Assembly: GCA_964057225.1 (NCBI GenBank)
Contig: OZ059900.1
Span: 26,288,001-26,352,000 of the forward strand
Direction of reading: 5' to 3'
Origin: Auanema rhodensis
Taxonomy: Eukaryota > Animalia > Nematoda
Length of the DNA: 64,000 nucleotides
The notes under the pieces are model-generated. The model had not been told where the DNA came from. It saw only the letters and a program-made list of their open reading frames with translations, and did not search any database. The translations under genes and the position numbers were made by a program. Below, in pieces: positions 5,014 through 48,133 of the stretch. Numbering within the stretch: position 1 is the stretch's first letter; each line of letters begins with the position of its first letter.

Positions 5014-5017
<4 letters not shown>

Positions 5018-5075
<58 letters not shown>
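5018..5075. repeat. (TA)n microsatellite
   Basis: Pure TA run; a similar run at ~7325-7367. Confidence 0.95.
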
Positions 5076-5078
<3 letters not shown>

Positions 5079-5211
5079 CTTATAGAGCGATATAAACTAT
5101 ATATATATTTTTCAAAAATCTATAGACATGTTTTTTTTTGGCTCCATAAAAAAACATGTTTATAGATTTTAAAAATATATATATATATAGTTTATATCGC
5201 TCTAGAAGTAA
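5076..5211. repeat. Small palindromic (MITE-like/foldback) repeat
   Basis: TTACTTATAGAGCGATATAAACT...AGTTTATATCGCTCTAGAAGTAA forms an imperfect ~135 bp hairpin; its left half recurs at 7301-7401. Confidence 0.6.
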
Positions 5212-16512: not shown

Positions 16513-16532
16513 TACAATTACAAATTTAAACA

Positions 16533-19675: not shown

Positions 19676-20072
19676 GATGGAGTTATAGGCAATGACTGTT
19701 TGTCAACTGGAAACAAAATTATTAGTTTTCTATACGAAAAAATAATTTAAATTATTGTCAAAAACAATTCTATACGAACAATGACAAAAAATTTTGATTT
19801 CTTCTCGCAATCAAAGGTGAAAGTTTCAACTCTCTCAAGTTTCTCCGAAAAAAAATTTTGTTAACACCTAATCAGTGTTTAGCAAAATTTTTTTTGTTTT
19901 TTCTCTTTTTTTTTTCACCAAAAATTTTATGAAAAAAAAAATTCAGAAAAAAATCGGAAAAACCCTATACGGGAGAGTTGTGACTAAATCACCAAGAGCT
20001 ATACGCTCAAAAATCGGTTAAGAAACTATACGTTTCCCTATTTAACAAAAAAACAATCAATCGAGCAGAGAA

Positions 20073-20087
20073 CCGGTTCGGCCCCCA
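20073..20087 (-). promoter_or_regulatory. tRNA-Pro primer binding site (copy 1)
   Basis: Reverse complement is TGGGGGCCGAACCGG, complementary to the nematode tRNA-Pro 3' end (...CCGGTTCGGCCC-CCA). Confidence 0.8.
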
Positions 20088-20364
20088 AGTCAAAAGACTG
20101 TATTGAAAAATCCAGATATGCATAAATCTATGCCAATTAACCTCTTAGTTAAATCTTCATGCATCTTTGAAATTATCTTGCTGCTTGTTAGCACTTCAAC
20201 ACCATTACTGTATACCCTAATCTAATCAGCACTCTCGACAATGCGGTTCTGATACTGTGAGAATATAACACTCTTCCGCTTAAACAAGAGTGCTGTATAT
20301 GAGATATGTGAATAAAGGTTTACTTTATCACCAAGCGCATGACATGAATCAATTTTTTCATACC

Positions 20365-21045
20365 TTTCGAAAGGGGGGTCCGGGGGTCACCCCCGGATCT
20401 CAAAGCTTATTTATATCGAGAAAACCTACGATATATAGGATCTATAACATGTTTTCAGTACTTTCGGAATGTACGAGAGAATAATAAGGTATATATTGTT
20501 ATGTGTAAAATATAATATTGTATATCTCAGCCTTTTTGGTAGTAATTAAAATATTCTGATTTGAGTATCTCTCTTTTATTATCGCATACGATTCCTGAAA
20601 TGAATGAATTGTGATAATCATACCACTCTTGAGATGATATATAGATTGTGGCCATACGAGTTTTGATGTATAACATTCTGATAATCATACCACTCTTAAG
20701 ATGATATATACATTGTGGCCATACGAGTTTTGATGTACAACATTCTGATAATCATACCACTCTTAAGATGATATATACATTGTGGCCATACCGCGTAACC
20801 ATGTGAACAGTAAATTGACTTTATAGTATTTGAATCAGAAGAAAGCGGGGGTGTGGGGGCGGCCAGCCCCCAATCTTAATTAAAGCATACGATTCCTGAA
20901 ATGAATGAATTGTGATACTAGAACCACACTTAAGATGATATACACATTGTGGCCATAGCGCGTAACCATGTGAACACTACATTTTCGTGATAGTATCTGA
21001 ACCAGAAGCAAGCGGGAGTGTGGGGGCGGCGAGCCACCACCATGT
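20365..21045. repeat. Repeat patch with 68-bp tandem units and GGGGGTGTGGGGGCGG...CCCCC hairpin motifs
   Basis: GATAATCATACCACTCTT at ~20612, 20680, 20748; duplicated block 20584/20885; G/C hairpin motifs at ~20372, 20846, 21012. Confidence 0.6.
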
Positions 21046-21060
21046 TTCTGAATCTCGCTT

Positions 21061-21098
21061 GCCTAAGCCTAAGCCTAAGCCTAAGCCTAAGCCTAAGC
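21061..21098 (-). repeat. Interstitial telomeric repeat (TTAGGC)6
   Basis: GCCTAA x6 joined to a truncated copy of the retrotransposon leader. Confidence 0.95.
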
Positions 21099-21207
21099 CC
21101 TATACGGGATAGTTGTGACTAAATCACCAAGAGCTATACGCTCAAAAATAGGTTAAGAAACTATACGTTTCCCTATTTAACAAAAAAACAATCAATCGAG
21201 CAGAGAA

Positions 21208-21222
21208 CCGGTTCGGCCCCCA
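21208..21222 (-). promoter_or_regulatory. tRNA-Pro primer binding site (copy 2)
   Basis: Same 15-mer; 19963-20217 is duplicated at 21098-21357. Confidence 0.8.
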
Positions 21223-21224
21223 AG

Positions 21225-22446
21225 TCAAAAGACTGTATTGAAAAATCCAGATATGCATAAATCTATGCCAATTAACCACTTAGTTAAATCTTCATGCATC
21301 TTTGAATTTATCTTGCTGCTTGTTAGCATTTCAACACCATTACTGTATACCCTATTTAAGAAAGTACTGCTCCTCCAACTTATGAGTGTCTTAGTTTTAT
21401 CAGTCATAAATCCTAAATCACCATAGACCCTGCACAGAAAATCAAAAAGTGTTCACTTTTATTAAGCAGTGTCTGGATTGTACCATCTCCCTTAGTGTGT
21501 AATTCTAGAGTAGCATCATCTATCATCACATTGACTTTGCATATATCAGATCCACTACTGATTTTAGCTCTCCTAGCACATCTAGATGTATATGCACATA
21601 TACATGAATGGATAATAGTGTCTAGTGAGCCAAACCATCCCTGTATTCCACCATTATTAAGTGTAGATATCATCCTTATACCCCTTCTATTGGTTACCAT
21701 CATTATCTTCTTGAAGAAATAACTAATTTCTCGGAATGGAGAGTACTCAAAAAGATCTAATATGATTTCTCTGGTTACATCATCACCAGACCAAGTCTCA
21801 CGAACTTTATTACCATATTTGCTGTTTTCACCTTAGGCGCTATATCTGATATTATTACCCATTCCCCTTCTGGCCTTATTAATCCATTACTAGTGAGTTC
21901 CTTAATGTCTCATCTGACTTGCTTCATAAATTTTTCATTAGACATAATAGGCCCTCTCACTATGGTATCCAGAAGTTCATTATTCCTGTGTCTGTGGGTT
22001 GGATCTATCTCCCTTGTAGCTTCTTCTATATTACTACTTATACGGGTAACATCATGTGCATCTAGATATGCAGTATCTGCATAATCTACCCACCTCAGAA
22101 GCTTCTTGAGGCTACATTCACCTAAGTCTTCATCAGGTATAGACACCTCAAGCCCTTGTAATAGTCTTTTCATCCAGGTCTTCTTCTTAACCTTATTATA
22201 GTTCTCAATATGAGGTGTAATGTCCCTGTCGTGGTATCCTTTGGTCTTTAAATGTCTTACCACAGCAACTAATAGATGCTCTTTCATGAACTTTATAAAT
22301 TCATCTCTAGTTTCCTGTTTAAATGGATTTCGAGAATTCATCTTAATATATGTGTTGACATGTAGGTCTTGTATACTACAGTCAGCTGTAGGTAATAAAT
22401 GGTATAGGTAACTAATACCGATCCTATGTCTCTCAGGAAATCCCAG
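21225..22446 (-). pseudogene. Endogenous RNA-virus RdRp fragment (left-arm copy)
   Basis: Reverse copy of ~33003-34320 with its own deletions; keeps a segment (DVTRISSN...NEKFM) missing from the right arm. Confidence 0.85.
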
Positions 22447-23009
22447 TATATTCTTAACAACAAATACTGGATGATTATCAACTACTTTTTGAATAATCAG
22501 AAATATTCTTCCAAAGTCATTTCTCAAAATACTCGAAACACAAAAAGATTTCCATTCTATGAAAATACATATGATATTTCTTAAAACTCCTCAGGTTGAT
22601 CACCATTATGAATTGACTTCAATTCTTCAACTTTTCGACAATATAATGGTAATTTGTTGTTGAATTCTAAGTAAACATTATAACAGTCATAGTTTTATTG
22701 AATTATCGCAAATTTAAACGAGTATTTTGTACTTCCTTGATGAACATCAATTTTTATAAACATCGCTCATTTGAAGACATATCAAAAACAACCAACTACA
22801 ATTTTCTCAATCGAGCAAGTGAAAAAAACGCTGAATATGTCACTCTTCCGGTAAGAATTTCACATATCATCACTTAATAACTAATTTGTGAATGTGATGT
22901 ATTCATTTGACCCACTCTTTTACAAAATTGAATCTATTATTTTGTATGAATATGTGATGTAGTCATTTGATTTCTTGAATAATCTCTAACGTATTTGAAA
23001 GTTATAGCC

Positions 23010-23276
23010 ATGAGATCTATGACTAAGCATAGGACTAAGTCTAAGCATGAGATCTATGACTGAGTATATGACTAATTCAAAGCATGAGATCTATGACTAA
23101 GCATATGACTAAGTCTAAGCATGAGATCTATGACTAAGCATATGACTTAGTCTAAGCATGAGATCTATGACTAAGCATATGACTAAGTCTAAGCATGTGA
23201 TCTATGACTAAGCATATGACTAAGTCTAAGAATGAGATGTATGACTAAGCATATGACTAAGCCTAAGCCTAAGCCT
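23010..23276 (-). repeat. 37-bp telomere-variant repeat ending in (GCCTAA)2-3
   Basis: Unit GACTAAGCATATGACTAAGTCTAAGCATGAGATCTAT; mirrored at 30731-30955. Confidence 0.92.
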
Positions 23277-24177
23277 GCAATGATTCCCTACAAGTTTTGC
23301 AGAGACGAATTGGTCTCATTAATACACTCTTTGGTGGAGTGCTCTCTCTCAGAATCTCCATCTGCTTCATTGGTGAATCTAAATTAAAGATTTAAAAAAT
23401 ACAAGTTAAGGTTCATACCAAAACTTGTAAAATTTGGAGCTGGTGTGGGTGGTCGTGGTACTTCAGGTTCTAGCGATTTGCGTGTAACAGTTGTCACATC
23501 AGCAAGTACAGCACGCTTCATTTCAGCTAAAAATCCAACTTTCTGAAAATCAAGACAAACTTGCAGAGAGGAGCAGTCTATGGCAATTGGCGAAGAGTGG
23601 CAAAAGATGGTGGAACGTCGGATCCTCGAATAGTTGGAGCTGAAATGTAAATGTAGCAAAATTGCCAACCTTTTATACGAAGACTTTTGTAAAGTACAAC
23701 CCATTGTGTTACAATCAAGTTTGCTGATGAAATTCTTTTATTAATTAGATTTTACAGCATATTTATGCAGATATACTCATCTCATCGACAGTTGCCAGCA
23801 GTTATCGCACTCTGAACCTGTAAACAATCTGCATATTAATTAGTTTTTACATCTCTTTAAACATTATTGTTTACCGTTTTTGCCATAAACAACAGTCATC
23901 TCTGTAAAACATTTAGGCTTTTTAAACTTTGCTTAATAGCTCATGTTTTTTTCATAGTTTATTAACCCTCGATATGCGTGGCGTTAAGTTCAGCGCAACT
24001 GTTCGTTAATCTTATTGTATTTACCTTCAATGTGTGCTCTATTTAGTTATTGTATTGTTATATTAGTAAAATAAAGTTTGAAACTATTCCATCTTTTATT
24101 ATAATTTGAAACTTTTACTTGTTACAATAAATATAATTAATAACAAATCGTAATTTCAAAAAATAATAATTTAATGT

Positions 24178-27520: not shown

Positions 27521-29355
27521 AACCGACCGAGTACTATCAGAAGCTAGCTGGGTAAACGAGTCTTCTACCTTGGGCAATTTGATGAACGATTCCATATTCA
27601 ACTTAAAACCTGTATGAGACCAATATAATTTTTTAAAAACATACCAGGGATTCGTCAATTTTTAGGAGCTTCAACACTAATAGCTCACTTTCATGGGTCT
27701 AATAGTTATAAATTGCAATATTATTGAATATGAATAAAAATCAAACGGATGTCTTGTTTAATCTTATTATCATAAATAATGATTGAGCGAGATGAAGAAA
27801 CTGGACGAAAAATGATTCTTTCCGAACATCTTTTTCTATCATGATGCTGAATTTTGAGTCACGTATAATGAAATTGCTGATCTTAAAAAATATATACAAT
27901 ATGTTATTTATCTATTAATGTTTAAAGTATGAACAACATCATACAACTATTTTGATTGCAGAAAACGAGACGGTTGGATTGTGTGATTGTAAACAATTTT
28001 GAAAAAATGTAATTGCATCTCGCTCATATGTTTATTTTTGGCAAAACCAGCAACATTTTTCATCATGAAAATCTGAAGTAAAATAAAATATAGTATAATA
28101 GTAACATATGTTCTCACACCGATGTACGTGTGCAAAAGATGCTGTTGTGCATGAATTGAGAAAACAATCTTGACGTATAACTCGAGTCATTTCTGTAAAA
28201 TTTTAAGAAGTAAAAACATATTAATAGAACATCTAGATATGAGTAAAGAGATATCTCGGTTTTTTTTCTCAAAATTGAAACATGTTGAAACATGAACATA
28301 AATTATTTTATTTTATATTAAATAAAAATAATTTTTGTTACACATGTTCATGGAATGGCTATAATCTTGATGTATAATGTAAAATACAAGATATGTGACA
28401 ATTACTACCTCATAAATTTATGGTTACTTTCTACATGCCGACAAACACTGCTGCCTTTTTTCGAATACATATATATGTTTATATATGTTCATGTATATTT
28501 ATGATAGACATGAAATATGACTACCTCATAAATAAGCGTTTTTTATGTGCCTACAAAGATTGCCATTCTTTGTTCGAATCATCATTTTTTTATTTATTTG
28601 TGCACAGTTACCCTATTTATTGTTTCTTTGAGTTATATAGTGATACTTTTATTGTTTAAAGCATTTGGATCGATTTTTTGTTGTGTGTCGTCATACAAAA
28701 TTTTGAATATTCTGTTTTTTCAAACTGTCATATTTTTTCCTTTATTTTTTGAGCATTCATGGCATTTTTTAAGTTTCAGATCAGTTTATGGTTTGTAAAA
28801 CTTAAAAATATCTAAATATAGTGGCAGGAAAATTAATGAAGTTCCACAGGCAATTGAACATGAATTCATAGAACACGCTAGTAATTTTCCATTGGTTTAC
28901 ATCAATGATCAAACGGTAAATTAATAAATTAATATATAGTTCTTATTTATATTTTTATTTGACGTTAATGAATCATATCAATTTAGATTGAAGAAATAGA
29001 TTCACAACCATTGTCTACTCAAAGTATCGAAAACAATAGTGATGGAGAAGAGAAATAAGTGGGTTCCACGTTATTATTTCGTGAAAATATAGTTTTTTTG
29101 AAAATTTATTTTTCTATTTATTCAGCTGATTCTTTTTTTCCATAATATTGTAATTGAAAAGGATGTTTTCGATTTTTTTCACAAAGTGTTGGAAACAAGA
29201 AGCGATTGCGGTGCATATAGTTGCGTTTTTAATCGAATAACCACCAACATGGAATTGCACAAACTACGTTCAAAACTAGATAAAAAGTCACATCTTATAA
29301 AAGGTTAGTAATTTGTTTTTATTCTCTCCGATATTGAGTATTGTTTACACTTAGG

Positions 29356-30007
29356 CAGACATGTCGCAGACTTGAGCCGTTGTTATGTCAATGCGTTGCT
29401 TTTTAACATACAGAACAACGGTTGGACAGTTGAAGACTGTAAAGATCTAATTAAATATGATGTTGCTTTGCGTCATATAGCTGAGCTGAGAAGTGCTTTT
29501 CAACGGGTCATTCCAAAAAAAGCAAGACGCAAAAATGTGCGTGCTTACGTTTTATACGGAGATACTCGTACAGGCAAATCATATTTTGCCAACTCATTCT
29601 TAGTTATAAAAAGTTTTTGATCAATAACATTTATTATTCGATTTGTTTTTCAGGAGATGATTGTTATACAGTTGCAGCGGATAATTCTGCATATTTTGAG
29701 AGTGAGTTATCCTGCATGTTTGAAGAGTAATAAATTCGTAATTGTCGTTTCAGAATATAATGATGAAGACTCAATTGTGATAGAAGAAGTAGTTCAATTC
29801 GGACAACGTGGTTATATGTCATCACGACCACACTTACTTCTATGTTATGATGGAGTATGTCGGTATGTGTTTTTTGTGAGATGCTCAATAAAACTAATTT
29901 TTTTAAGCTTGAATGTGAAATTCTCAAGTTGCACTATATATGCAACCAAAATTTTTTTACTTTCGAACTTTCATCCAAGAGAATGGTTTCCGGGAGATCC
30001 AGAGACG
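29356..30007 (+). pseudogene. Intron-containing CRESS-DNA-virus Rep-like SF3 helicase domain
   Basis: Walker A YVLYGDTRTGKS; after splicing 29702-29753 (GTGAGT..TTTCAG) AYFEKYNDEDSIVIEE (Walker B); after splicing 29863-29907 RLNVKFSS...KIFLLSNFHPREWF (motif C). No clear HUH domain seen. Confidence 0.7.
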
Positions 30008-30730
30008 GTGATAGATTTTTATTATTTAAGCATTGCATTCAATTCCTCTTGTTGAAATAACAGACTTCTATAATTTCAACTTCTAGAGATCACTTCTATC
30101 GTTCTCTCGTTCTTGATTTTTTGAGTTTTTGATAAGCTGGATGTAACCTGAACTTGTGTTCGTTAGTTACGAATAAGTTCTATATACTTGAGCTTGGGTT
30201 TAATAGTTACGAAAAAGTTTGATATACCTAAACTAGAGTTTGATAGTTGGGTTTTTGTTTTTCAGTGATTTTCTGATTGGTTATACTACTTATATTCCAC
30301 ATCTCATTCGTTTGTCAACTTTTTTTCGCGAGATACAATGAAAAAACACCAACATTTACATTTCAGCTCCAACTATCCGAGGATCCGACGTTCCACCATC
30401 TTTTGCCACTCTTCGCCAATTGCCATAGACTGCTCCTCTCTGCAAGTTTGTCTTGATTTTCAGAAAGTTGGATTTTTAGCGGAAATGAAGCGTGCTGTAC
30501 TTGCTGATGTGACAACTGTTACACGCAAATTGTTAGAACCTGAAGTACCACGACCACCCACACCAGCTCCAAATTTCACAAGTTTTGGTATGAACCTTAA
30601 CTTGTATTTTTTAAATCTTTAATTTAGATTCACCAATAAAGCAGATGGAGATTCTGAGAGAGAGCACTCCACCAAAGAGTGTATTAATGAGACCAATTTG
30701 TCTCTGCAAAACTTGTAGGGAATCATTGCA

Positions 30731-30955
30731 GGCTTAGGCTTAGTCATATGCTTAGTCATACATCTCATTCTTGGACTTAGTCATATGCTTAGTCATAGAT
30801 CACATGCTTAGACTTAGTCATATGCTTAGTCATAGATCTCATGCTTAGACTAAGTCATATGCTTAGTCATAGATCTCATGCTTAGACTTAGTCATATGCT
30901 TAGTCATAGATCTCATGCTTTGAATTAGTCATATGCTTAGTCATAGATCTCATGG
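30731..30955 (+). repeat. (TTAGGC) seed followed by 37-bp telomere-variant repeat
   Basis: GCAGGCTTAGGCTTAG then TCATATGCTTAG... Confidence 0.92.
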
Positions 30956-31840
30956 CTATAACTTTCAAATACGTTAGAGATCATTCAAGAAATCAAATGA
31001 CTACATCACATATTCTTACAAAATAATAGATTCAATTTTGTAAAAGAGTGGGTCAAATGAATACATCACATTCACAAATTAGTTATTAAGTGATGATATG
31101 TGAAATTCTTACCGGAAGAGTGACATATTCAGCGTTTTTTTCACTTGCTCGATTGAGAAAATTGTAGTTGGTTGTTTTTGATATGTCTTCAAATGAGCGA
31201 TGTTTATAAAAATTGATGTTCATCAAGGAAGTACAAAATACCCGTTTAAATTTGCGATAATTCAATAAAACTATGACTGTTATAATGTTTACTTAGAATT
31301 CAACAACAAATTACCATTATATTGTCAAAAAGTTAAAGAATTGAAGTCAATTCATAATGGTGATCAACCTGAGGAGTTTTAAAAAATATCATATGTATTT
31401 TCATAGAATGGAAATCTTTTTGTGTTTCGAGTATTTTGAGAAATGACTTTGGAAGAATATTTCTGATCATTCAAAAAGTAGTTGATAATCATCCACTATT
31501 TGTTGTTAAGAATAAAGCATTCGATAATACTATAAGCAAACATTTTTTTTAAACTTTTCTGTTTATTCAAAAAATAGTTATTATTGAACTACTAATAGTT
31601 GTCAAAAATGAAGTACTCGATCATTAAATCTTGTTGCTCATATGTTGGGATATCATCAATACGTGACATTTCGCAAAAGGAATGGTAATTAAACCAAAGA
31701 TTTTTAAACTCTTAGCTATTTTATGCTACTCTAGAATTACACACTAAGGGAGATGGTACAATCCAGACACTGCTTAATAAAAGTGAACACTTTTTGATTT
31801 TCTAAAAAATCTCTGGTTTAATTACCATTCCTTTTGCGAG

Positions 31841-34320
31841 ATGTCACGTATTGATGATATCCCAACATATGAGCAACAAGATTTGATGATCATGCTCAGT
31901 TCTTTTTTGCTTTGCAATGATAAGAAAGGTTTTGATAAGGTTCAATCATTGTTATCTAACATTAATGGGAACAAACTTAAATGGGATAAAGAACCTTATT
32001 ATCTTGGCCTAACGGGTGAGAAGCTACAACTAATAGAGGTAGGCGATGGGTTTAAAGAGGATGTATCAGATATACACTGGGAAGGCTTCCTCAATTCAAT
32101 GGGCTACTTAGATTCAAAACATGACAATGGTAGATATGAATCATCTAAATTTGTATCATTCTTGACTAAGGAAATTATTCGCAAACATAAAATCAAAGAG
32201 ATATATAGTGATGAAGATGCTAGGTACAGGTTACTATATAGATCATATTTCTCTAAGGATTTTGAATCAGAAATCAATACAGATCAGGGAGGAAAAGCTA
32301 AGGGAAGTTTCATGACATCTCTCATACAGTTGCCTATGTGTAACTTAAGTATGCCAGGTATAAGTAAATGGATTGATGAATTCTTGACAAACCCATTGTT
32401 AGATGATGATAATAGACGCTTATACTCAGTTACAACTATGTGGAAGAAAATCCATAACTGTGGTTTAAGTGCTAATCAACGAGAGGTGCTTAAGAACAGC
32501 TATTTATTTGATCCCTCAGTGGAATTTGACAAGCTAGTTGACCTAATGGAAGTTACTGGAAAACTTAGATTACCTAAAAGTCTTAAGTTATATAAGAGTG
32601 GGAAAGTGATGTTACTTGTAGATGTTACAGGACATGAAATGTTTATAATAACACAATCCTCAGGAAATATATTATATAACTATACAACCTCTGCTTTTAA
32701 TTGGAGATTCTATTCAAGAATGGACAGGGGGATAGGCCTTTGTGGAAGAATTAGAGATCCTATTGAAAACTACCATGACATTGGCTTTGAGTGGATTAAG
32801 TCTGCAATGGAATATTGCAAGATATTCAACAGAAGGGTTTGTGTTATTACGAAGTGCATGAAAATTTCCAGCTCTGTTGCTCAGCTAACAATAAACAAAG
32901 GAAGTGAACTAGCTGAAACTGGCTCTGAGGCTAAGAAAAGAGTTTTAGAACAAGAAATCTTTGAGTTAATGCCTGACTTTACTCCATGGCACTGCATACT
33001 TCAGGGATTTCCTGAGAGGAATAGGATCGGTATTAGTTACCTATACCATTTATTACCTACAGCTGACTGTAGTATACAAGACCTACATGTCAACACATAT
33101 ATTAAGATGAATTCTCAAAACCCATTTAAACAGGAAACTAAAGATGAATTTATAAAGTTCATGAAAGGGCATCTATTAGTTGCTGTGGTAAGACATTTAA
33201 AGACCAAAGGATACCACGACAGGGACATTACACCTCATATTGAGAACTATAATAAGGTTAAGAAGAAGACCTGGATGAAAAGACTATTACAAGGGCTTGA
33301 GGTGTCTATACCTGATGAAGACTTAGGTGAATGTAGCCTCAAGAAGCTTCTGAGGTGGGTAGATTATGCAGATACTGCATATCTAGATGCACATGAAGTC
33401 AAGCAAGTCAGATTAGACATTAAGGAACTCACTAGTAATGGATTAATAAGGCCAGAAGGGGAATGGGTAGTAATATCAGAGATAGCGGCCAAAGCTGAAA
33501 ACAGCAAATATGGTAATAAAGTTCGTGAGACTTGGTCTGGTGATGATGTAACCAGAGAAATCTTGTCTGAAATTGACAGGAATGTTTCATTCCTTATGCC
33601 AATAATTCCAGGTGCAGCTATGAAAAGACCAGTTCCTTCGATTTCACAAGCATTAAGATCATCATCTAGAGAAGGATTTCTAGGGAATAAAGATGGGAAA
33701 GTTATTTTATTCAGTAGCCAAGATGTATCTTCGTGGTCACCTTCCCAGGACAGGAAATACATGTGCCAGTTATATCAAATCATATTAGATCTTTTTGAGT
33801 ACTCTCCATTCCAAGAAATTAGTTATTTCTTCAAGAAGATAATGATGGTGACCAATAGAAGGGGTATAAGGATGATATCTACACTTAATAATGGTGGAAT
33901 ACAGGGATGGTTTGGCTCACTAGACACTATTATCCATTCATGTATATGTGCATATACATCTAGATGTGCTAGGAGAGCTAAAATCAGTAGTGGATCTGAT
34001 ATATGCAAAGTCAATGTGATGATAGATGATGCTACTCTAGAATTACACACTAAGGGAGATGGTACAATCCAGACACTGCTTAATAAAAGTGAACACTTTT
34101 TGATTTTCTGTGCAGGGTCTATGGTGATTTAGGATTTATGACTGATAAAACTAAGACACTCATAAGTTGGAGGAGCAGTACTTTCTTAAATAGGGTATAC
34201 AGTAATGGTGTTGAAATGCTAACAAGCAGCAAGATAATTTCAAAGATGCATGAAGATTCAACTAAGAGGTTAATTGGCATAGATTTATGCATATCTGGAT
34301 TTTTCAATACAGTCTTTTGA
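31841..34320 (+). pseudogene. Endogenous negative-strand RNA virus RdRp (qinvirus/Muvirales-like), 763-aa ORF plus a frameshifted tail
   Basis: AKAENSK..KVRETWS (motif F), QDVSSWSP (A), GGIQGW...DT..HS (B), MIDD (C), frameshifted YGDLGFMTDKTKT (D), TFLN (E); intronless; 3'-truncated. Confidence 0.82.
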
Positions 34321-34322
34321 CT

Positions 34323-34337
34323 TGGGGGCCGAACCGG
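34323..34337 (+). promoter_or_regulatory. tRNA-Pro primer binding site (copy 3)
   Basis: TGGGGGCCGAACCGG, followed by a ~400 bp leader and the gag ATG at 34734. Confidence 0.8.
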
Positions 34338-34733
34338 TTCTCTGCTCGATTGATTGTTTTTTTGTTAAATAGGGAAACGTATAGTTTCTTAACCTATTTT
34401 TGAGCGTATAGCTCTTGGTGATTTAGTCACAACTCTCCCGTATAGGGTTTTTCCGATTTTTTTCTGAATTTTTTTTTTCATAAAATTTTTTGTGAAAAAA
34501 AAAGAGGAAAAACAAAAAAAATTTTGCTAAACACTGATTAGGTGTTAACAAAATTTTTTTTCGGAGAAACTTGAGAGAGTTGAAACTTTCACCTTTGATT
34601 TCGAGAAGAAATCAAAATTTTTTGTCATTGTTCGTATAGAATTTTTTTTGACAATAATTTAAATTATTTTTTCGTATAGAAAACTAATAATTTTATTTCC
34701 AGTTGACAAACAGTCATTGCCTATATCTCCATC

Positions 34734-35530
34734 ATGAGTGAGGAACTGGATATCGAAATGAACGAAGAACGAAATTTTGATTCTTTTAATTTTAATTATT
34801 ACCTGAGGTTGCGGCTTATAAGGGTGGATCGTATAGTGAATTCGTTGATTTCACAGAACGATTTAACTATAAATACCCAGATGATGTTTTTTCTCAACGT
34901 GAGAAAAAACTTTTATTCATCAATAAACTCTAAGGCGAGATCAGAAACCGCTATAGAGAGTTACCTGAAGCCATAAAGCAAAGTTCCTCAGATGTCATAG
35001 TGAACAGTTTACGTATAGAGTCAACCGTTTCACAAAGGCAGGGAAGAATGCAGGCTACTGAAAACTTGAGAAGTTTGAAATGGAATAGATCCCAGTCGTT
35101 AGTAAATTACTGCGATGAGTTAGAAAAACTAACTCAACTGGCTAATCCAGATTAAATTCTTAGTTTATTATCGTTTGAAAGAGCTAATAAACTGTACCAA
35201 GAACTTTGTAACTGTTCTTGTGGAGTTTCCATCCTTGAAAAAATAAAAGATGAGGAGGACGAAGAAATTTACGAAAAAGTAAAACAAATCGCCCTCAGAT
35301 GTGAACGAAATAAGTTAACTCGTTCAATCAATCAATCCAATGAATCCGAGCAGAAACAAAACTTGAGCCGGAAACATTATCCACATATCTCCGATGAAAG
35401 AAAAGTGAGAAACACCAATAATAATGAAATTAATTGTGTGTACTGTAATAAAAAAGGACATACGGCAAACGTATGTTTTAAAAGACAAAATAAAAGAATA
35501 GAGAATAAAAGTAGACTTAACACTCCTCGA
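34734..35530 (+). pseudogene. gag remnant (right arm; large deletion, stop codons)
   Basis: MSEELD start, CVYCNKKGHTANVC; mirrors 18411-19675. Confidence 0.75.
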
Positions 35531-38335
35531 GAACCACCCAGCGTGGTCGTTAGATCGCTCACATTCCCACATTTGGAAAATATTAATGAGCCAATGCATG
35601 TTGTCATGCCGCGGCTATTTAATGAGTTCCTTGATCGGTGCCTTGCTGAAAGTGGTGTGCCCGATAAACAAAAAGCACTATTTTGTTTATCAATAGAGCA
35701 CCCATCCTTTGAAAAGGGATCCATATTTATGGATTTCCGTAGAAGGGAGCATTTGGATGGCGTTGTCATCATGAATGCTATCAGCAAGGTGCAGCAATCA
35801 AAGCGAGAGGCTGTAATTAGCCAGGCAATGAATATTGAAATGTATGTGTTTGATGAGAGACCAGTGATACACATTGCCTGGCTAGAGCAGCAGTTGTGGG
35901 AATGTGGAAAGCCGATGAAGAGGCAGCAGAAGATGTAATTGAGAAGCGGAGGATTCAAAATCTTCGTCGCAACTACATCTTGTTGCCAAATCAACCACAT
36001 CATATCAATTTATTAAATAGGTGTGGTGTTTCTGTACATTTACCAAATTATAATTTGAACCATTTAAATATTATTGCAAGTTGTAATACAGACTATAAGT
36101 TTGTAGTATACGCTAGGCCACCTGGACAGCGTATCTTTAATGAAACGGCTAGCAAAGTGGTAACACTAGGCTACCGAAATAATCATTATGACTGTATTAC
36201 AACTTGTAGTAGATCACAGCTTTTCGATTGTATTATATGCCAACACTGCAAATTATCTTACAAAACAGTGTTGCATAGATGTAAAGCCAAGTGTAAGAAA
36301 TGCCACACCTTAAAATGTAATTCGATGGAAAATGTGGTTGAAAATAGCATAAGATGTGATAGTTGTAGAGTTTTGTTTAAAACTTGTCATTGCTTTGACA
36401 GGCATATTAGAAAAACATGTCAAATGTTTAAGGTAATTTAAAAAATATATATAAAATTTAACAAGACTAAATTCAGACATGTGAAAACTGTGATCATTAT
36501 CACAGAGTACGTGCTGATAGACCACACAATTGCAATGAGAAATTTTGCAAAAAGTGTGAGCAAACTAAGCCTGAAGATCATTCTTGTTGTTGGGTACCAC
36601 CTAACGACAAGAAGAAGGATCAGATAAAAAAGAGGCAAGAAAAATACAAGGTTTGTAATTAACATCTTTACAAGTGTAATACTTACTTGTTTAAGATTAT
36701 ATTTTATGATTTTGAAACGGTTGTGTTAAAAAACGGTACAAATGTTCATGAATATGCAGATGAACAATGGCCCAATATGGTTGTGTATAACAAATTTTGT
36801 GAAAGTTGTATAGATGCCAATTCAAGCGAAAAATGCACAACCAAGGAGGGCCATTTTGGGTATCAACAAGGTGATAGTGAATGGTCTGTAACAGATCGTT
36901 TTCTTGATTGGTTACTCAACTCTGTTGAGAATGATAATGCAATTTTGATAGCGCATAATGGTTCACGCTTTGACATACATTTCTTGGTGTCTAGGCTGAT
37001 AAACCATGGAATATATCCTGATCCAATTTTAAATGGGACCAAGATTATAAGCATGGTTGGCAGTAAACTATTTTTTACAAATTGCCGCACTTGTGCAGTC
37101 AAAAGTAAAAATGTAGCATGTGAGCACCAAAATGATGTAAATGCTCGAAAGCTGCATCTAACCGTGACACATGTTGAGCTCGAGTGTGCCATACAACATG
37201 GCTATAAAGTGCTTCATGTGCATGAGGTGTGGCACTGGGAAGAATGGCAGCAAGGCGGCCTGTTTAAAGAGTTTGTACAAAAGTACATAAAAATTAAACA
37301 AGAGGCGTCGGGCTGGCCAAAGATGACAGAGGAAGAAAAGGTATGTTTTCATAAAAGTATCACATTAAATAGAATTTTACAGATGATATATCTCCAAGAA
37401 CACGAGGTGAACACTGGTGTTGCTCTGGAGAGCAATAAAATTGAAAAAAATGCTGCCATGCGTAGCATTGCCAAACTGCAGCTAAATAGGTTTGTAAACT
37501 TTTTAAAACAATACATTACGAATTTGCTTATAGTGTCTGTGGTAAAATGGGTCAAAGACCTGATAAAGCCCAAACCAAGATTATTGGTGTTGAGGACCCA
37601 GAAATTCGTAGGATCATTACTGATCCTGCAAGGGAACTCACTGGGTTCAAAATTGTGGATAATGTTTCGTACTGCACAACAGTACCAGAGTATTCACATT
37701 TGGCACCACCGCATTTTACAAATGTAGCTATTGCGGCCTATACAACCGCTCATGCAAGGCTACTATTGTATAAGGCAATGGAGAAAAATGGAAAGAATTT
37801 AGTGTATACAGGTAATTTCATACTTTGTATACAATTTAAACATACATCATTTAGACACGGATTCACTAATTTATCAAAGATGCCTAGATGAGCCTGATTC
37901 AATTGAGGATATGAAGGGTGAATGGTTAGGTAAACTAACCTCTGAAATACCCGATGGTTGGTCAATGACCAAGTTTGTGTCACCAGCGGCAAAAGTTTAT
38001 AGTTATAAACTTGTAAATGCAGCTGGTGATGTAAAATATGTAACAAAGGCAAAGAGAGTGGTAAGTACGAGCTTTGACTTTTCAAATAATTTTATAATTT
38101 TCAGACGTTGTACCACACGGCAGCGTCAGTGGTAAACTTTGAAAGTATGGAGCGACTGGTTCGCGGACTCGTTATGGATGGAGAAAAATTGGTTTTAAAA
38201 ACCAATACAACCTTGTTAAAGAGGCAACTCGGTGCCACATCCACAATGGATATGACAAAAAGTACTAAAGTCGTAATGGATAAACTTTGTTATCTACAAG
38301 ATTATAGTACTTTACCCTACGGTTATTGTGTTTAA
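35531..38335 (+). pseudogene. Maverick pPolB with spliceosomal introns, internally deleted
   Basis: YDFETV, IAHNGSRFD, KIKQEASGWP; splicing 37490-37533 restores KLQLNSVCGKMGQR and splicing 37812-37854 restores YTDTDS; TLPYGY at the end; ExoIII/motif A region missing. Confidence 0.9.
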
Positions 38336-38475
38336 TATATTTGAATTTAATAATTTTTATCATCTTGTATATATTTGTATTTATAAAATTTTATCATTGT
38401 ACATGTATTTATTTTTAAAAATAGTTGTATTAGTAAATTTTATTCTTATATCTTTTAAAGAATTTATTACATACA

Positions 38476-39190
38476 TTACAAACTGGTATCAATATATGGA
38501 GCACGATTGTTGTCAATGGAAAGAATAGAGTCATACTCTGCATAAACAATTGCATCTTGATTGAGCAAATGTACATCGCTGATATCTACTTTCAAATTTG
38601 GAAACTCCTCCTTTAATGTAGTATCCTTGTTTTCATTATTCCAGCCTAGAGTGTCAATTAAAATATTATCACGGTTTGGATATGCAGTTAGCTCCATTTT
38701 TGAATAGTTTACAAACAGTCGCTCTTGATTAAATAGGTCGATACTGACGGGAGCAGCCATCTCACACAATATGCCATTTTTTACAAGCGCTTGACGCGTT
38801 CTAAATCCAGCACTGGATGCATTATCTATATATCTATCAGCATAATAGCCTGATATGGCAAGTTTGCTCTCTTTAACATCGTTGCTATACATTAAAATAT
38901 TCTCGATATATGTTTTATAGGCATGATTCACGGTAGAGTCATACACGCTAACATCGCCAATTTTCAAATGATAAGAATGTATTAAACTGGCAGCAAATTG
39001 TTGACATGGTGCAAAAACAAGGTTGTCTGGTACTGGATCACCGTTTGTGGTTACAATTTTAAATTTTACATTCAACCAACATCTTCTCAGATTGAGGAAT
39101 GATTTGGAATTTTGAGCTATAACAAATTCCCATGGTCCTTGAGGAAAAAACGTTTTTTTCAAAGGGACTTGTACAGTACGAGTAGACTCT
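38476..39190 (-). pseudogene. Maverick major capsid protein, internally deleted
   Basis: GPWEFVI, AYKTYIENILMYS, GYYAD, SIDLFNQERL and C-terminal IVYAEYDSILSID, as in Polinton MCPs; too short for a double jelly-roll. Confidence 0.75.
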
Positions 39191-39194
39191 ACAC

Positions 39195-39433
39195 CTAATG
39201 CCGACGCTGGTATATCACCTCATCGACAATTTCATTACCAGTTTTCAGCAACTGTCCGCCAAGAGGTGAATTTACAACTGGACTATTGCTTACAGCACTG
39301 GATAAGGCGTTTCTTCTGGCATTGATGAGATTTTGGGCTATAGGTGATTGAATGATGCGTGGAAGAAATGATGCCAAAGTTGCCAAAATACCACCCAAAC
39401 CATGACCCCTCTGCATTCCACGTTGAAACATCA
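39195..39433 (-). CDS. Small Polinton/adintovirus-type protein with QRGxGLGG amphipathic motif
   Basis: FQRGMQRGHGLGGILATLASFLP, located just upstream of the MCP gene. Confidence 0.6.
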
Positions 39434-39761
39434 TTCCGCTAAATATGGACATTTGGATGGTGTTCGTAGACGTTTGTGCCCTCATTGTAGTGAAACTTGT
39501 GGAACAAGATTCAATTGTGAGCGTCATATTCGGCGTATTCATAATAATAATGGAACGAATGGTGAAGATGGTGATGGAAATGATACCAGCAAACCCTTTA
39601 AAAAAGCTGAGGAGTTTGTACATTCAACCCAATCAAAAAGATGCCGCAGCAATATTGACGGAGAACATTCACAACACGAGCCGAGCGACAAACAAAACTG
39701 CCCTAAACTATCTTTTAAACCTTCGAAAATAAAAATGTGGTATTGTATAACTGTTGAATAA
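39402..39761 (+). CDS. Possible small C2H2 zinc-finger ORF
   Basis: CPHC-x12-HIRRIH exactly fits C-x2-C-x12-H-x4-H; overlapped by an alternative-frame ORF 39445..39732. Confidence 0.45.
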   Translation: MTPLHSTLKHHSAKYGHLDGVRRRLCPHCSETCGTRFNCERHIRRIHNNNGTNGEDGDGNDTSKPFKKAEEFVHSTQSKRCRSNIDGEHSQHEPSDKQNCPKLSFKPSKIKMWYCITVE

Positions 39762-39766
39762 AACGT

Positions 39767-40621
39767 TTATTTCATACTTTTAACATGCGATGTAACAACT
39801 GTAGAACCATAATTAAATTGCATAGGACGACCAAATTCATCTAAAATGTCAATACGTATAGTATCGAGTGTTTGTCTAGTGATTGGTACATAACGAATAG
39901 GATTAAATGTTTTGGCAATCATTTTACCAAATTCAGTAGGAGGTGGTACAGGTAAACATGCAAGTAAATTAGCTTTCACATTACCAAGAATGGAATATTC
40001 TACAATATCAATATATATACATTGTATTAATGTTATTTGAAAAATTAATGGGACGCCTGGCTATTATTGTATCGTTGATGTTTTTATTTTCAAAACCAAG
40101 AAAATATGCAAAATCATCACCAAGCGTTGCATTCATTAATAGTCGCTTGCTTGTTACAAACTCTATGCGCTGCAATGTTTTGTTAAACTGAAATGTGGCA
40201 TCTGCGAGCATTTCCTCCACTAGCTTAGCCTCAGCCTGGCAATTATTATACCAATTTTTTACATCTTCATCTTTATCTATTAAACGCTTAATACGTGCTT
40301 CTTCCTCAGCTCCAAGAGGCTTTGTATTGTTGGCGATAAATGATTCTCTTCCAGCATTGATTCCGCGTATTATTTCATCACCATTTGCATAGTTGCCTTT
40401 AGGCAAGTGCAGAATAAATTTTCTATTGGAAAAACGTAGTGTATAAGATAAATCTTTTTGAACATTCAATATAGAACAAGGAAAAATGATGTCTGTCAGC
40501 CCAATGCAATATCTATTATTGCGTAGCCTTAGTGTTTCAGGTAATCTGGTAAGAAACACTGATGATGTATTACTTTTTTCAGAGTCAACTGATGATGGAA
40601 GAGTAATGTAAAATCATCCAT
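39767..40621 (-). pseudogene. Maverick minor capsid (penton) protein, two frameshifts
   Basis: YITLPSS...NTSSVFLTRLP...YCIGLTDIIFP, MYIY/DIVEYSILGN..ANLL, PIRYVP, IRIDILDEFGRP.QF. Confidence 0.8.
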
Positions 40622-40698
40622 GACAAACCACCACTTGATACGTGTACACTATTGCAAATGAAATCATGCATTTTAGGTACATTTACGAGTGGTTGATT

Positions 40699-41346
40699 AT
40701 GGTTTTCAGCTTCAAACTACCCAGTCAGACAACTGTAATAGGTGCTACCCAATGCGGTAAAACAACCCTCATAAAGCACATATGCGAAAATACTGAGAAG
40801 TTTTTCAACGTCCCCATTGATAGAATATTCTGGTTCAGTCAATGTGGGTCATCGTCAGGTGTACCAATAAATGATGAGCGTTTAATAATTATTCAAGGGC
40901 CTCCTGATTCTGATTTGATAAAAGAACAAAATGGAGTAAATACTATACTAGTGCTGGATGATTTGATGAACTTTTTTTCATCGAATAAAGCAGCAAAGGA
41001 GATACTCAACAACATTTTTACAGTATGGGCTCATCACTGGAATTTGGCAGTGTTTAATCTTGTGCAAGCGGCATTTCAACTGGACAGGACCAGTCGAATC
41101 AATAGTACATATATGATACTGATGAAAAGTCATTCAGATATATTACAAATACGTAATTGTCTGCAGCAATTATTTGGGCCACGTTTCAAAAATGCTCTAG
41201 AGGCGTATGATGATGCAATGTCTACTCCCTATAGTCATTTACTGATTGACAATCATCCTTTAACAAGTGAGAAGCAGCGTATACTATCTGATCTAACAGC
41301 GGAAAACCCTATTGTTTATGTTGCCAGAAATGTGTTTAGTGTTTAA
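40699..41346 (+). CDS. A32/FtsK-like DNA packaging ATPase (Maverick)
   Basis: Walker A GATQCGKTT, Walker B LVLDDLM, FT..AHHWN....LVQ, RINSTY, PYSHLLID; ORF intact. Confidence 0.92.
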   Translation: MVFSFKLPSQTTVIGATQCGKTTLIKHICENTEKFFNVPIDRIFWFSQCGSSSGVPINDERLIIIQGPPDSDLIKEQNGVNTILVLDDLMNFFSSNKAAKEILNNIFTVWAHHWNLAVFNLVQAAFQLDRTSRINSTYMILMKSHSDILQIRNCLQQLFGPRFKNALEAYDDAMSTPYSHLLIDNHPLTSEKQRILSDLTAENPIVYVARNVFSV

Positions 41347-45494: not shown

Positions 45495-46671
45495 CTATGA
45501 CGTCTATTGAATAGAAAGTAGGTCAATTGAATATATCACATATTTGTAAAATGTGATGGATGATATCTTAGGTATATCGGGCTTAGGCTTAGTTATATCG
45601 GGCTTAGGCTTAGTTATATCGAGCTAAGGCTTAGTTATATCGGGCTTAGGCTTAGTTATATCGAGCTAAGGCTTAGTTATATCGGGCTTAGGCTTAGTTA
45701 TATCGAGCTAAAGTATAGTTATATCGGGCTTAGGCTTAGTTATATCGGGCTTAGGCTTAGTTATATCGGGCTTAGGCTTAACCATATCTTACTTCATATT
45801 CGAATCCATCACTTTTAATAATTTTGTGATGGTGAATCGTCCCGGCGTCACTGAACAAACTGTCCCGGGGACACTTCGAATCACTGAATAATGCTTAAAC
45901 ATAGTGTAACTACATTTTAAATAAAACATTTTCATCTCTTCTTCACAAAAAAACATTAATTCATTCATATATGCTATGCACATTCAAAAATATAAAAAAA
46001 GATAAAAAATATTAAAACAAAAATATTCTTCTCATGAGATGGTAACAAAATCATCCATTGTAACATTATTTCTTCTTTTGGTTGAGAGAGACTGGTTAAT
46101 TTCAGGAATGTTAATAGGTGTGCTCGGGTTAATATTTCTATTTTTATTATTTTTGTACAAAAGGATTCTGGATTCATAGTTGAAATCCTTACCAATGCAT
46201 GTGACAACTGTTCGGCACTAAATAATTTGTTTTAAATTCAAATATAAAATAGGTTCTCACTATCATGCACAAAAGATTTCGAGCATTTTTCTTGACATAC
46301 GATATGTCATAATGTCTCAGGAAGCAGTCGTTACAGAAACCATGGAAACATGGTGATACTCTGGAAATTTATTTGATTGAATAGTAGTGATAAGTGTTGT
46401 TACATGACTCGGTCGGTGGTTAGTAGGGTGCAAATAGTGCACATGTCAGTCTCCGCTTGACCTTCAAGAGGGACAACTTCTTCTTTCTCCTCAGGGAGAG
46501 TATTGCGATTTCTTATGAAATCTATAACATCATTGTATGTGTCCAGCTGGACATCTCTGCTCATCATGATGAGAGCGTTCTTAAACCCAACAAGAGCGGT
46601 ATCACGGTTGTAATATACATACTCTTTGAATCGAACCTGAATTATTGAACTGTTAACTGTTACAAAGATAT
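44272..46671. repeat. Inverted repeat, ~0.93 kb arms (44272-45216 / 45760-46671)
   Basis: Mirror ORFs 44736..44969 and 45974..46207 etc.; AT-rich spacer. Confidence 0.95.
45568..45780 (+). repeat. 21-bp telomere-variant repeat (GGGCTTAGGCTTAGTTATATC) x~10
   Basis: Direct inspection. Confidence 0.92.
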
Positions 46672-48133
46672 GCTGGTCGTTTGTACCTACCCCCTGAAGA
46701 TTTGGGTCTTGGTTTGAAATCACTCGAGGAGATGGTGGAAAATGCCTTTATATATGCTTATGCGTATGTCGCCACTACCCCCTCACTGCAGTTTTCCTAT
46801 AGTCTATTCGAGAGACACAGCAAACGTGGCAAAAAGACTATTGTTTCAGCTTTCAATAAAGTTATAGAGCGTTATGTGATAACAGTTGAAAGACACTGTG
46901 AAAGAGCGATACCATCACTTATTATTAATGGGAACACGTTCGAAGGTCCCAGGGATGCGGCTCGAGCCATGATATCAGTACTGTGTGATCAAAGGAGAAC
47001 GCAGAGGCTTGAAAACTGGTTAAGTAAAAGCGCAGCATCGATGGTATATGGCGTAGCAAATATTAATATTAGTATGTCAGGCTTATGGTTGGAAAAAGGA
47101 TTGGTAAATAGCAAGACGGTGCGTAACATACTTGCTTTGCAGGAGTTCCAGCTCATTACTCGGTCCCATGTGGCGTCCAGGACTTGTGCGGGATGTAGAC
47201 TTTGTTCTGCTCCTAGAGAAACTCCGGAACATGTTGTTTCATGCTGTCCGCAATTTCGCCCAACCTTAATGTTAGACAGACATAATAGCGCGGCTCGAAA
47301 TATCTATTATTGGCTCTGTAAAAAGTTTGGTTTCCAAACGATACATCATACTCAGAAAGTTCCGGTAGTGCAAACGAACGGTGACAAGACGATATGGTGG
47401 GACAGGTACTTCGATACCCCAAATAAGCTGGATCATTATAGACCAGATATTGTTTACCATGATTCTTCGAGGAAAGCAATATATATTATTGAGATTGGCA
47501 TATCTTGGATTACCAGGATAGATGAAAACATCAGTCGTAAGTATAATAAATACGCGGTAAATTCGTGCTTATCTGACACACATGTGCTACCGTATCCACC
47601 AGGGTTATCTTTGGCTCGGGAGTTACAGAACATGTATGGTTCAACTGTGCATGTGGTACCTGTTGTGGTAGGGTGTGGTGGTGAAGTAACTGAGAGCTCT
47701 CTTGAGCACTTGAAAAGACTTCCTACTATAAGTCATGATGAAACTATCTACCTCTTGGAGAGAATCCAACGTAGTGCTGTATTAGGTACTGATAGAGTAA
47801 TTAAAGCCCACTTAAGTTCCTTCGGGAAAAATTAACTTCGATGAATCTCCACCAGGAAGATCGGTGGATGTGTCTTTGCGAGACTATTCTATTTGAGTTT
47901 ACTCTTATAGTAGATAATTCTGAATCAGCTGAATGGATGTGGCGAACATCTGGGTAAGAACAGTAAGCTGGTAACTTGAAGTAGAAAGACCTCCGGGAAA
48001 CAACAGGGTAATATCATAGGTTATTAACTCGTCGTACTGTGAACATGCACTGTCCCAGGTTCCATTCGGGTAACGCTAACATTTCTACGGATGGTTGTGC
48101 ACTCCTGTAACAAGGGTGCTTCAGTCGATAGTC
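46670..48133 (+). mobile_element. R4-like non-LTR retrotransposon, family A, 5'-truncated copy with intact RLE domain
   Basis: Near-identical to 57095-58273; CRLC...ETPEHVVSCC, RHN, RPDIV...IIEIG; followed by the 28S target AGTGACGCGCATG. Confidence 0.9.

Follow-up and report, generated by a model that had tools for sequence, protein, structure and literature searches.

How a fragment of an RNA-virus polymerase gene came to lie where the 5' long terminal repeat (LTR) of a retrotransposon should be is the question raised by a locus in the nematode Auanema rhodensis (contig OZ059900.1; the window analyzed is 64,000 nt long, and positions are counted from its first base). For the germline entry of non-retroviral RNA viruses, most of what is inferred comes from their position close to LTR elements. 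The original prediction was that a Gypsy reverse transcriptase (RT), primed with tRNA-Pro at its primer binding site (PBS), had switched straight onto viral plus-sense RNA.

The window carries part of a qinvirus-like L gene (31841 to ~34306, plus strand), roughly its first 45%, starting at Met1 and broken by a frameshift. Homology and motifs define a first part, 31841 to 34063, which extends from Met1 through RdRp motifs A to C, with IDD in motif C. The frameshift is located between 34064 and 34104; motifs D and E and the next helix follow in a second frame, and virus-only sequence ends at 34306. The long ORF stops at 34132, and the final 75 codons, in the different frame, matched a profile (68 of 72 in-register rows, out of 83 full-length proteins) with an E value of 1e-21 over residues 2 to 72. 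Within the gene, 4 nt at 33396 to 33400 stand in place of 127 nt present in the left copy described below, with the frame preserved. The best named match was the L protein of Xinzhou nematode virus 3 (P0001; E=1.9e-48), which aligns colinearly with the EVE from Met1 as far as residue ~850 and shares the IDD of motif C, at 24% identity. We take this virus to be a member of the Qinviridae. Colinear homology to qinvirid L proteins and the presence of motifs A to E support the qinvirus-like identity that had been predicted. Searches of PDB and Pfam left the viral ORF unrecognized, and a 208-aa core gave a single unrelated match (E=0.16). There were 127 homologs at E≤0.001, 83 of them stored at 1,500 aa or longer, and an RdRp tree was built from the first 44 of these 83. 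The endogenous viral element (EVE) forms a long separate branch in this tree (length 2.39; weak support, 77/73; no outgroup and one named tip only), with none of the 44 homologs close to it. The EVE thus appears to document the arrival, in what is likely the nematode germline, of a qinvirus-like lineage that is deep and unsampled.

The 15-mer taken as the PBS lies at 34323 to 34337 (plus strand) and again at 20073 to 20087 and 21208 to 21222 (both minus strand); these are three exact matches in the window, where 0.01 would be expected with up to two mismatches. Its first 14 nt are identical to the sequence printed as the PBS of the Gypsy/Ty3 element Cer1 (PMC3315495), and it is from the Cer1 papers that its predicted tRNA-Pro identity follows. 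Pattern scans for tRNA-Pro genes yielded 17 loci in viral contigs, none of them a tRNA by ARAGORN, and no matches in metagenomes; a text search of the literature found the full 15-mer in no paper. A scan for the PBS with a T-run returned 44 metagenome loci, none with a downstream knuckle or similarity to gag or L, and these were discarded as chance matches. Downstream of the PBS, as predicted, are an AT-rich leader (34338 to 34734, plus strand) and a decayed gag-like gene (34735 to 35542, plus strand), in which ~500 nt near the start are replaced by 30 nt and two in-frame stops occur. The gag-like ORF carries one CX2CX4HX4C knuckle. Its atlas matches scored 0.83 to 0.88, below 0.9, and the best named ones (10 of 10) fall in one gag family or clan; no Pfam gag match was obtained, and a homolog search was empty. 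The label "Gypsy" is based on the Cer1-type PBS and a weak gag match, pol being absent from the element. A 5-nt overlap (35538 to 35542, plus strand), with loose contig ends at 35538 and 35542, joins gag to a Maverick/Polinton-type DNA polymerase region (PF03175 at 36663 to 37724). The element's pol, 3' LTR, and target-site duplication do not survive at the locus.

The virus was originally thought to abut the PBS directly. This proved incorrect, as 16 nt of the element, 34307 to 34322 (plus strand), intervene. In public DNA runs, element copies without the virus diverge from the window sequence at exactly 34307, seen as loose contig ends in runs X1 and X2 and as the start of a contig in X9. 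Since other element copies share 34307 to 34322, these 16 nt, apparently the 3' end of the LTR plus a spacer, belong to the element, and so does the "viral" stop codon. The TGA at 34318 to 34320 does close the virus-homologous frame two bases before the 15-mer, but that frame is reached through the frameshift, and the TGA and the last four codons fall in element-shared sequence. The four codons match the homolog columns more closely than expected at random (P of 0.02 to 0.08, a weak signal), and the 16 nt may partly be microhomology between virus and element; with the closest proteins 24 to 26% identical to the EVE, such microhomology is conjectural. When the last viral residues were compared with qinvirus L proteins, as had been proposed, they matched in register up to the F at 34303 to 34305, so that viral homology reaches to ~17 nt from the PBS rather than ending far upstream. 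We therefore reject the idea that 34200 to 34306 is LTR, as this stretch encodes L residues in register; only 16 of the 123 nt from 34200 to 34322 are common to element copies, which refines the predicted model without overturning it. The prediction that no LTR is visible was borne out, with no additional copy of the pre-PBS bases, and thus no LTR pair, in the window. The intact LTR can be seen only as 30 loose, T-rich letters, without a repeat, and it is from their position upstream of 34307 to 34322 that we infer these to be LTR. The sequence leading into the PBS lacks a terminal CA, the closest such dinucleotide being 11 nt upstream. Since the nonviral copies leave at 34307, the joint falls within the initial 16 nt to be copied once RT is primed.

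On balance we think it probable that the element's RT primed on tRNA-Pro, copied at most 16 nt of its own template, and then switched too early to a viral mRNA packaged along with it. This premature first-strand transfer would have landed near codon 860 of the plus-sense viral RNA, and RT would then have copied toward the viral 5' end, halting 37 nt before the start codon. A template switch alone gives no downstream leader and gag, so a second-strand transfer is required: plus-strand synthesis would have crossed the 16 nt and then the PBS derived from the tRNA, and normal transfer onto element minus-strand DNA would have supplied both. The virus end, without an LTR for integrase, would have been joined to the chromosome by end-joining, with three templated inserts; here the junction is observed and the enzyme is putative. 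Later deletions, fusion to the Maverick, and an inverted duplication are evident at the locus and led to three copies of the junction. The intervening 16 nt contradict a switch straight from the primer, and priming directly on the virus without copying element bases is rejected on the same ground. The virus mRNA sense is that of the element, in keeping with the predicted copying of plus-sense RNA. This shared polarity is what copy choice entails, and it is reported for 543 of 614 LTR-EVE pairs in Aedes (bioRxiv 10.1101/127498); the classical form, an insert between two LTRs, is not seen, as templated inserts and no LTR lie left of the virus. For HIV-1, U5 junctions left by premature first-strand transfer are described in 7 of 395 deleted proviruses (PMC12657518). 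A LINE-mediated retrocopy does not account for the locus: there is no poly(A), the viral 3' half is missing, and the 5' end is kept.

On the far side, 37 nt (31804 to 31840, plus strand) separate the end of the virus from its start codon, which places that end near the natural RNA end; from their sequence we presume these 37 nt to be the retained part of the viral 5' untranslated region (UTR). Relatives have 5' UTRs of 24 to 332 nt (median, 132; 13 contigs with an intact N-terminus), and since the retained part is shorter than in 12 of the 13, run-off at the true 5' end is a possibility only. Beyond it lie an inverted viral copy (31619 to 31705, minus strand), a 24-nt exact copy of gag in the orientation opposite to the element (31700 to 31723, minus strand), which overlaps the inverted copy by 6 nt, and an 81-nt exact direct copy of viral 34029 to 34109 that includes the frameshift (31723 to 31803, plus strand). 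The source of the gag piece survives only in the left arm, at 19488 to 19511, and the longest chance match in 1,000 shuffles was at most 16 nt. An exact piece of gag at this end implies that virus and element were already together when the end formed. The 81-nt insert bears its source's frameshift, so its template, whether DNA or RNA, must already have carried the error; this fits host repair at integration and also a later rearrangement. Templated inserts, direct and inverted and drawn also from the opposite junction, are the mark of polymerase-theta integration (PMC5508229).

The locus is contained in an inverted duplication, 16532 to 23654 against 30352 to 38251, whose arms are 94 to 99% identical. 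One left-arm duplicate (21095 to 22444, minus strand) consists of viral 33004 to 34306 with one internal deletion, the 16 nt, the PBS, the leader to the equivalent of 34450, and six TTAGGC repeats; the other (18075 to 20219, minus strand) has 116 nt of virus, the 16 nt, the PBS, the leader, gag without the 500-nt deletion, and the same Maverick joint. The original prediction, that the junction occurs twice more in the left arm, was right as to presence, but these are duplicates of one event. Three independent captures are rejected, as the left-arm junctions sit in the inverted duplication and show 3 and 5 differences in 260 nt relative to the right copy. The arms are further distinguished by six or more secondary indels, each exceeding 70 nt, several of which have short inserts at their joints. 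Over 884 nt, 3 synonymous and 9 nonsynonymous codon differences were counted between the arms, an approximately neutral ratio on small numbers, and selection on the viral protein was rejected. The locus is a fossil, and nothing in it suggests function at the protein level.

Other routes to this junction have to be weighed. An assembly chimera, in which a viral transcript present as a contaminant was joined to a repeat of the host, might be suspected in a repeat-rich region where no single listed contig covers the whole stretch, yet we regard it as highly improbable. The sequence is present in nine runs guessed to be DNA, from three studies with three organism labels; an X1 contig covers 34080 to 34336 without differences, and the arm-specific deletions are visible as joints in X1, X2, and X5. 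(The runs listed as carrying the sequence include no RNA and are uninformative on expression.) Presence in host DNA, host flanks, and diverged copies with a frameshift and deletions, the marks of chromosomal aging, are all found, and they confirm the predicted endogenous origin.

Given the secondary indels, a deletion could plausibly have come later and stopped close to the PBS. RT could have captured the virus by an ordinary jump of a longer strong-stop DNA or elsewhere in the LTR, after which a chromosomal deletion took away the 3' portion of the virus together with most of the LTR and by chance halted 16 nt before the PBS. This locus is rich in such deletions; one contig of run X5 has a possible joint from 34101 to 34316, 7 nt from the PBS (its short side is only 22 letters), and the reported HIV-1 junctions favor the R region over U5 by 50 to 7 (PMC12657518). 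We nonetheless consider this unlikely, because all three window copies share the junction, no longer form occurs among the listed loose contig ends, a random deletion end would seldom fall within these 16 nt, and the joint at 34306/34307 lacks filler bases, unlike several later deletions here. A separate viral cDNA, made by any RT, could instead have been patched by host break repair into the 5' LTR of a resident element, or inserted nearby with a deletion, the gag insert being templated from the broken end. The templated inserts at the 5' end indicate DNA repair, gag lies ~600 nt from the joint and was available as a template, and the surrounding region is a repeat-rich transposon graveyard; but since this route requires several separate coincidences (shared polarity, a break no more than 16 nt away from the PBS, disappearance of the remaining LTR, and priming of the viral cDNA at an internal site for which there is no explanation), we hold it to be quite unlikely.

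Within premature transfer, the primer itself may have chosen the site, the tRNA with its short nascent DNA hopping to a site in the viral mRNA that acted as a cryptic PBS; we find this doubtful. About nine codons past the breakpoint is a conserved Gly-Ala-Asp-Pro motif, whose codons resemble the tRNA-Pro PBS in some related viruses, and the PBS core itself reads Gly-Ala-Glu-Pro. The site is among the best 1.5% of positions for pairing in two relatives of named length nearest the top of the match list. Its median rank across 15 contigs is 10%, with 5% reached in 3 of them (15 of 20 contigs were kept, 1 being too short and 4 without a match; 2 of the 15 alignments were gapped). PBS mimicry just past the breakpoint in some related viruses is thus a hint only. 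If true, Cer1-type elements would capture qinviruses at a predictable hotspot, a tRNA-guided acquisition of viral sequence.

Capture of RNA viruses by LTR elements is already known, a nematode case included; junction anatomy of this kind was not found in the literature searched. The locus, a single decayed event, retains both ends at base resolution. It points to transfer at most 16 nt after priming and to a two-enzyme route, element RT followed by host end-joining, with integrase not used at the virus end. It also predicts a searchable class of EVEs that stop just short of a PBS, a few bases on its upstream side, and that LTR finders miss.

Among the systems we compared, Cer1 of Caenorhabditis has a tRNA-Pro PBS identical over the 14 nt printed (PMC3315495, PMC10309623), whereas the A. 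rhodensis element is without a significant gag homolog or pol and its PBS is not flush with a CA end. In the recombinant of lymphocytic choriomeningitis virus (LCMV) with IAP (Geuking 2009, as reviewed in PMC3205384) and in mosquito virus-LTR hybrids (PMC6797480; bioRxiv 10.1101/127498), an LTR-element RT likewise joins non-retroviral RNA in the same polarity. In these accounts the evidence comes from cell culture, from somatic products, or from genome statistics in bulk, with little positional bias and no mention of the PBS, and the LCMV-IAP junctions may include positions similar to this one. LTR-mediated retrocopies of host mRNAs share template switching at short microsimilarity (median, 6 bp), but in the cases presented internal ORFs are replaced through two switches and both LTRs are retained (PMC5131818); here a single switch would have occurred before strong-stop DNA was completed, giving a product without a left LTR. 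The HIV-1 products share the U5 junction and the incomplete LTR, but the acceptor described is the same viral RNA (PMC12657518), whereas here it would be the mRNA of a foreign virus. Closest in host is eBxnv-1 of Bursaphelenchus xylophilus, also a nematode, in which an RNA-virus polymerase was caught by an LTR element (Bel/Pao) and copy choice was proposed (PMC5177903). That report describes a plus-strand nodavirus RdRp, open and expressed, between two intact LTRs; the A. rhodensis locus, in contrast, has a broken gene of a negative-strand virus in place of the 5' LTR, with the putative switch point mapped 16 nt from the PBS.

The ORF that begins at ATG 31841 matched the RdRp of Xinzhou nematode virus 3 (E=1.9e-48, 24% identity) and aligned colinearly from residue 1, bearing out the original prediction of a qinvirus-like RNA-virus polymerase; we take this virus to be a qinvirid. 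In a library search, 127 relatives scored E<=0.001, mostly of 1600-2000 aa, a length that fits the 5.6- to 6.6-kb L segment of the Qinviridae (PMC10721934). A frameshift somewhere in 34064-34104 ends the ORF at 34132, and the sequence for motifs D and E continues in a second frame, closing at TGA 34318-34320. The viral frame had been expected to run to this TGA; a frame does close there, but the long ORF ends earlier and the TGA lies within element-shared bases. The 75-residue second-frame piece matched a profile of 72 homolog segments (E=1e-21, residues 2-72), and the hydrophobic pattern is kept up to an F at 34303-34305 that is identical in 40% of 68 rows; thus, ∼45% of L is present, with homology extending to the junction. 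In a 45-row tree without an outgroup (the endogenous viral element, EVE, and the first 44 of 83 homologs), the EVE stood alone on a long branch, with no near relative. Its codons differ between the two arms of an inverted duplication (16532-23654 and 30352-38251) by 9 nonsynonymous and 3 synonymous changes in 884 nt, with no sign of protein-level selection. The viral ORF also matched P0109 (E=6e-6; 326 aa), a protein catalogued under the fluke Echinostoma caproni, which may be a qinvirus-like sequence or an EVE in a trematode data set.

The 15-mer primer binding site (PBS; 34323-34337) occurs three times in the window, against 0.01 expected. Its first 14 nt are the Cer1 PBS printed in PMC3315495, which is complementary to C. 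elegans tRNA-Pro(TGG), in agreement with the predicted nematode tRNA-Pro match; PMC10309623 treats the Cer1-type tRNA-Pro PBS as a family mark. Directly downstream are a 397-nt leader (34338-34734) and, from 34735, a gag-like ORF that encodes a single CCHC knuckle; its best named atlas matches were all retrotransposon-gag clusters (scores 0.83-0.88; a lead only), and it gave no Pfam match and no homolog in the homolog search. Gag is joined to a Maverick-type polymerase region at 35538-35542 over a 5-nt overlap, beyond which native copies of each, seen in run contigs, continue differently; the element's pol and 3' LTR are missing at the locus.

The window stretch is present in nine public sequencing runs (guessed to be DNA) from three studies with three organism labels, and contigs of four (X1, X2, X5, and X9) were compared with it. 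An X1 contig with at least 255 unlike, T-rich letters enters the window sequence at 34307, X2 has the identical last nine letters before that position, and one X9 contig begins there. We conclude that 34307-34322, stop codon included, is the element's own, the first 16 bases copied by reverse transcriptase (RT) after priming. The virus therefore does not abut the PBS as had been proposed; of 34200-34322, asked about as a stretch shared by other element copies, this piece is shared but the viral-homologous remainder, up to the F codon, is not. The four codons over these 16 bases agree with the homolog columns somewhat more than chance would give (P 0.02-0.08), a weak hint that part of the piece is virus-element microhomology. 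Depth over gag relative to the single viral copy (∼3x in X1, ∼15x in X2, ∼4x in X5; not a copy number) fits further virus-free element copies.

The two further junctions once counted as repeats are indeed present, but they lie in the left arm and, with 3 and 5 differences in 260 nt, are copies of the same event. Left flank, frameshift, and Maverick joint are common to both arms, between which there are at least six indels of >70 nt. Contigs of X1, X2, and X5 all show the joint of a left-arm deletion from 31514 to 33004, so the duplication is older than the split of those samples. Between two direct 260-nt copies that include the PBS junction lies an 875-nt insert (20220-21096) starting with six copies of TTAGGC, the nematode telomere repeat; it resembles either a healed break or a telomere-linked insertion.

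The left end of the virus carries templated sequence, a feature absent from the original prediction. To its left stand, in order, an inverted copy of the first 87 nt of the virus (84 identical), an inverted, exact 24-nt piece of gag, and a direct, exact 81-nt copy of 34029-34109; one X2 contig (31438-31655) runs from the flank into the insert. The 24-nt match exceeded all 1000 shuffles (maximum, 16), and its source lies within ∼500 nt of gag later lost from the right arm, so the insert predates that loss. The frameshift is identical in the 81-nt piece and its source; the piece was therefore most likely copied from DNA. The inverted viral copy stops where the virus starts and overlaps the gag piece by 6 nt, a pattern that a free DNA end at 31804 would produce. 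Polymerase-theta integration is described with direct and inverted templated inserts, some from the opposite junction (PMC5508229). Of the UTR, 37 nt are retained, less than 12 of 13 relatives have; RT may thus have ended its copy before reaching the cap.

From this observed anatomy we infer the enzymatic steps. Priming on tRNA-Pro would be followed by the copying of at most 16 nt, a premature jump onto viral mRNA, and copying in the direction of its 5' end; the plus strand would then be synthesized through the PBS, second-strand transfer would supply leader and gag, and host end-joining would attach the LTR-less end. We consider this course of events probable. The proposed RT switch from the PBS onto viral RNA is thus favored, with the short element copy, second-strand transfer, and end-joining added. 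In HIV-1, premature transfer with a U5 junction lies behind 7 of 395 deleted proviruses (PMC12657518). Against the favored course, deletions are frequent at the locus, and an X5 contig has a joint (34101-34316) ending 7 nt from the PBS, with 22 letters on its short side; both points speak for RT capture with later trimming, which we consider unlikely, and for capture by repair alone, which seems slightly less likely. That the element's own RT captured the virus, in whatever form, is highly probable. In X5 (organism C), one contig appears to have lost more sequence to either side of the PBS (34101-34316 and 34337-34555); the run also has a loose end inside the viral ORF at 32183 and barely any cover over 31534-32024. 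This may be decay specific to the lineage.

Premature transfer onto viral mRNA might have met a cryptic PBS past the breakpoint, although this is a post hoc hint. About 9 codons beyond it, a motif is conserved among relatives, reading Gly-Ala-Asp-Pro in 19 of 68 rows and in the three best matches; the PBS core in frame reads Gly-Ala-Glu-Pro. In natural L contigs the motif codons are often among the ORF's best PBS mimics, and by pairing energy the zone past the breakpoint reaches the top 1.5%, 1.4%, and 0.4% of positions, respectively, in the viral contigs L062, L063, and L070. Over 15 contigs the median rank is 10% (<=5% in three), the most AT-rich contig shows no pairing signal past the breakpoint, and the motif and the 16-nt piece would be offset in register by 8 nt.

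The window is AT-rich and repeat-dense, with satellites, mariner and Tc1 transposases, three non-LTR reverse transcriptases, and a DNA polymerase B fragment. Its TTAGGC runs, the Cer1-type PBS, and the best match to a nematode virus together point to a nematode as the likely host. Maverick/Polinton remains (35538-41346 and 16532-18420, minus strand; DNA polymerase B, PF03175) include an ATPase-like ORF (40639-41346); ORFs 38476-39219 and 40008-40613 resemble capsid genes and gave no Pfam match. Between runs, contig depth over 35542-36200 ranges from ∼40 to >1000 times that of the single viral copy, which suggests a very abundant family. A 508-codon open frame (17397-18923, minus strand) fuses the gag C terminus, with its CCHC knuckle, to the Maverick polymerase N-terminal region, whose part matched unnamed nematode and arthropod clusters (0.91-0.92); that the fusion is in frame, a one-in-three outcome, is probably accidental. 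At 29312-30060 (plus strand), broken ORFs that may be split by introns carry a Walker A motif and resemble a superfamily-3 helicase of the type seen in Rep proteins of small DNA viruses (PF00519, E=0.009, below cut-off); they may be a second EVE, 1.6 kb away from the viral one. Two satellite arrays (1-5100 and 11307-14016) have units of ∼167 and ∼176 nt, and a 37-nt minisatellite (∼23000-23270, 30729-30954, and 60000-64000) adjoins TTAGGC runs. Two long non-LTR retrotransposon ORFs are open (49550-53269 and 54442-57975, plus strand; 1239 and 1177 codons, RVT_1), the latter with a near-identical partial copy at 46670-48146.

Titles and abstract openings in the openly readable literature, which does not extend to the LCMV-IAP junction data, yielded neither an EVE whose junction lies a short way upstream of a PBS nor a qinvirus EVE in a nematode. 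The locus records one genuine capture, now decayed, whose ends are unusually easy to read, a variation on a known process; its weight is lowered by the precedents for its class, the nonindependence of the junction copies, and possible later deletion. Further nematode EVEs are on record (PMC12548735), and LTR elements likewise capture host mRNAs (PMC5131818). Capture of RNA viruses by LTR elements is reported for LCMV-IAP in mouse (via the review PMC3205384), in mosquitoes (PMC6797480; 10.1101/127498), and, for an RNA-virus polymerase, in a nematode (PMC5177903).
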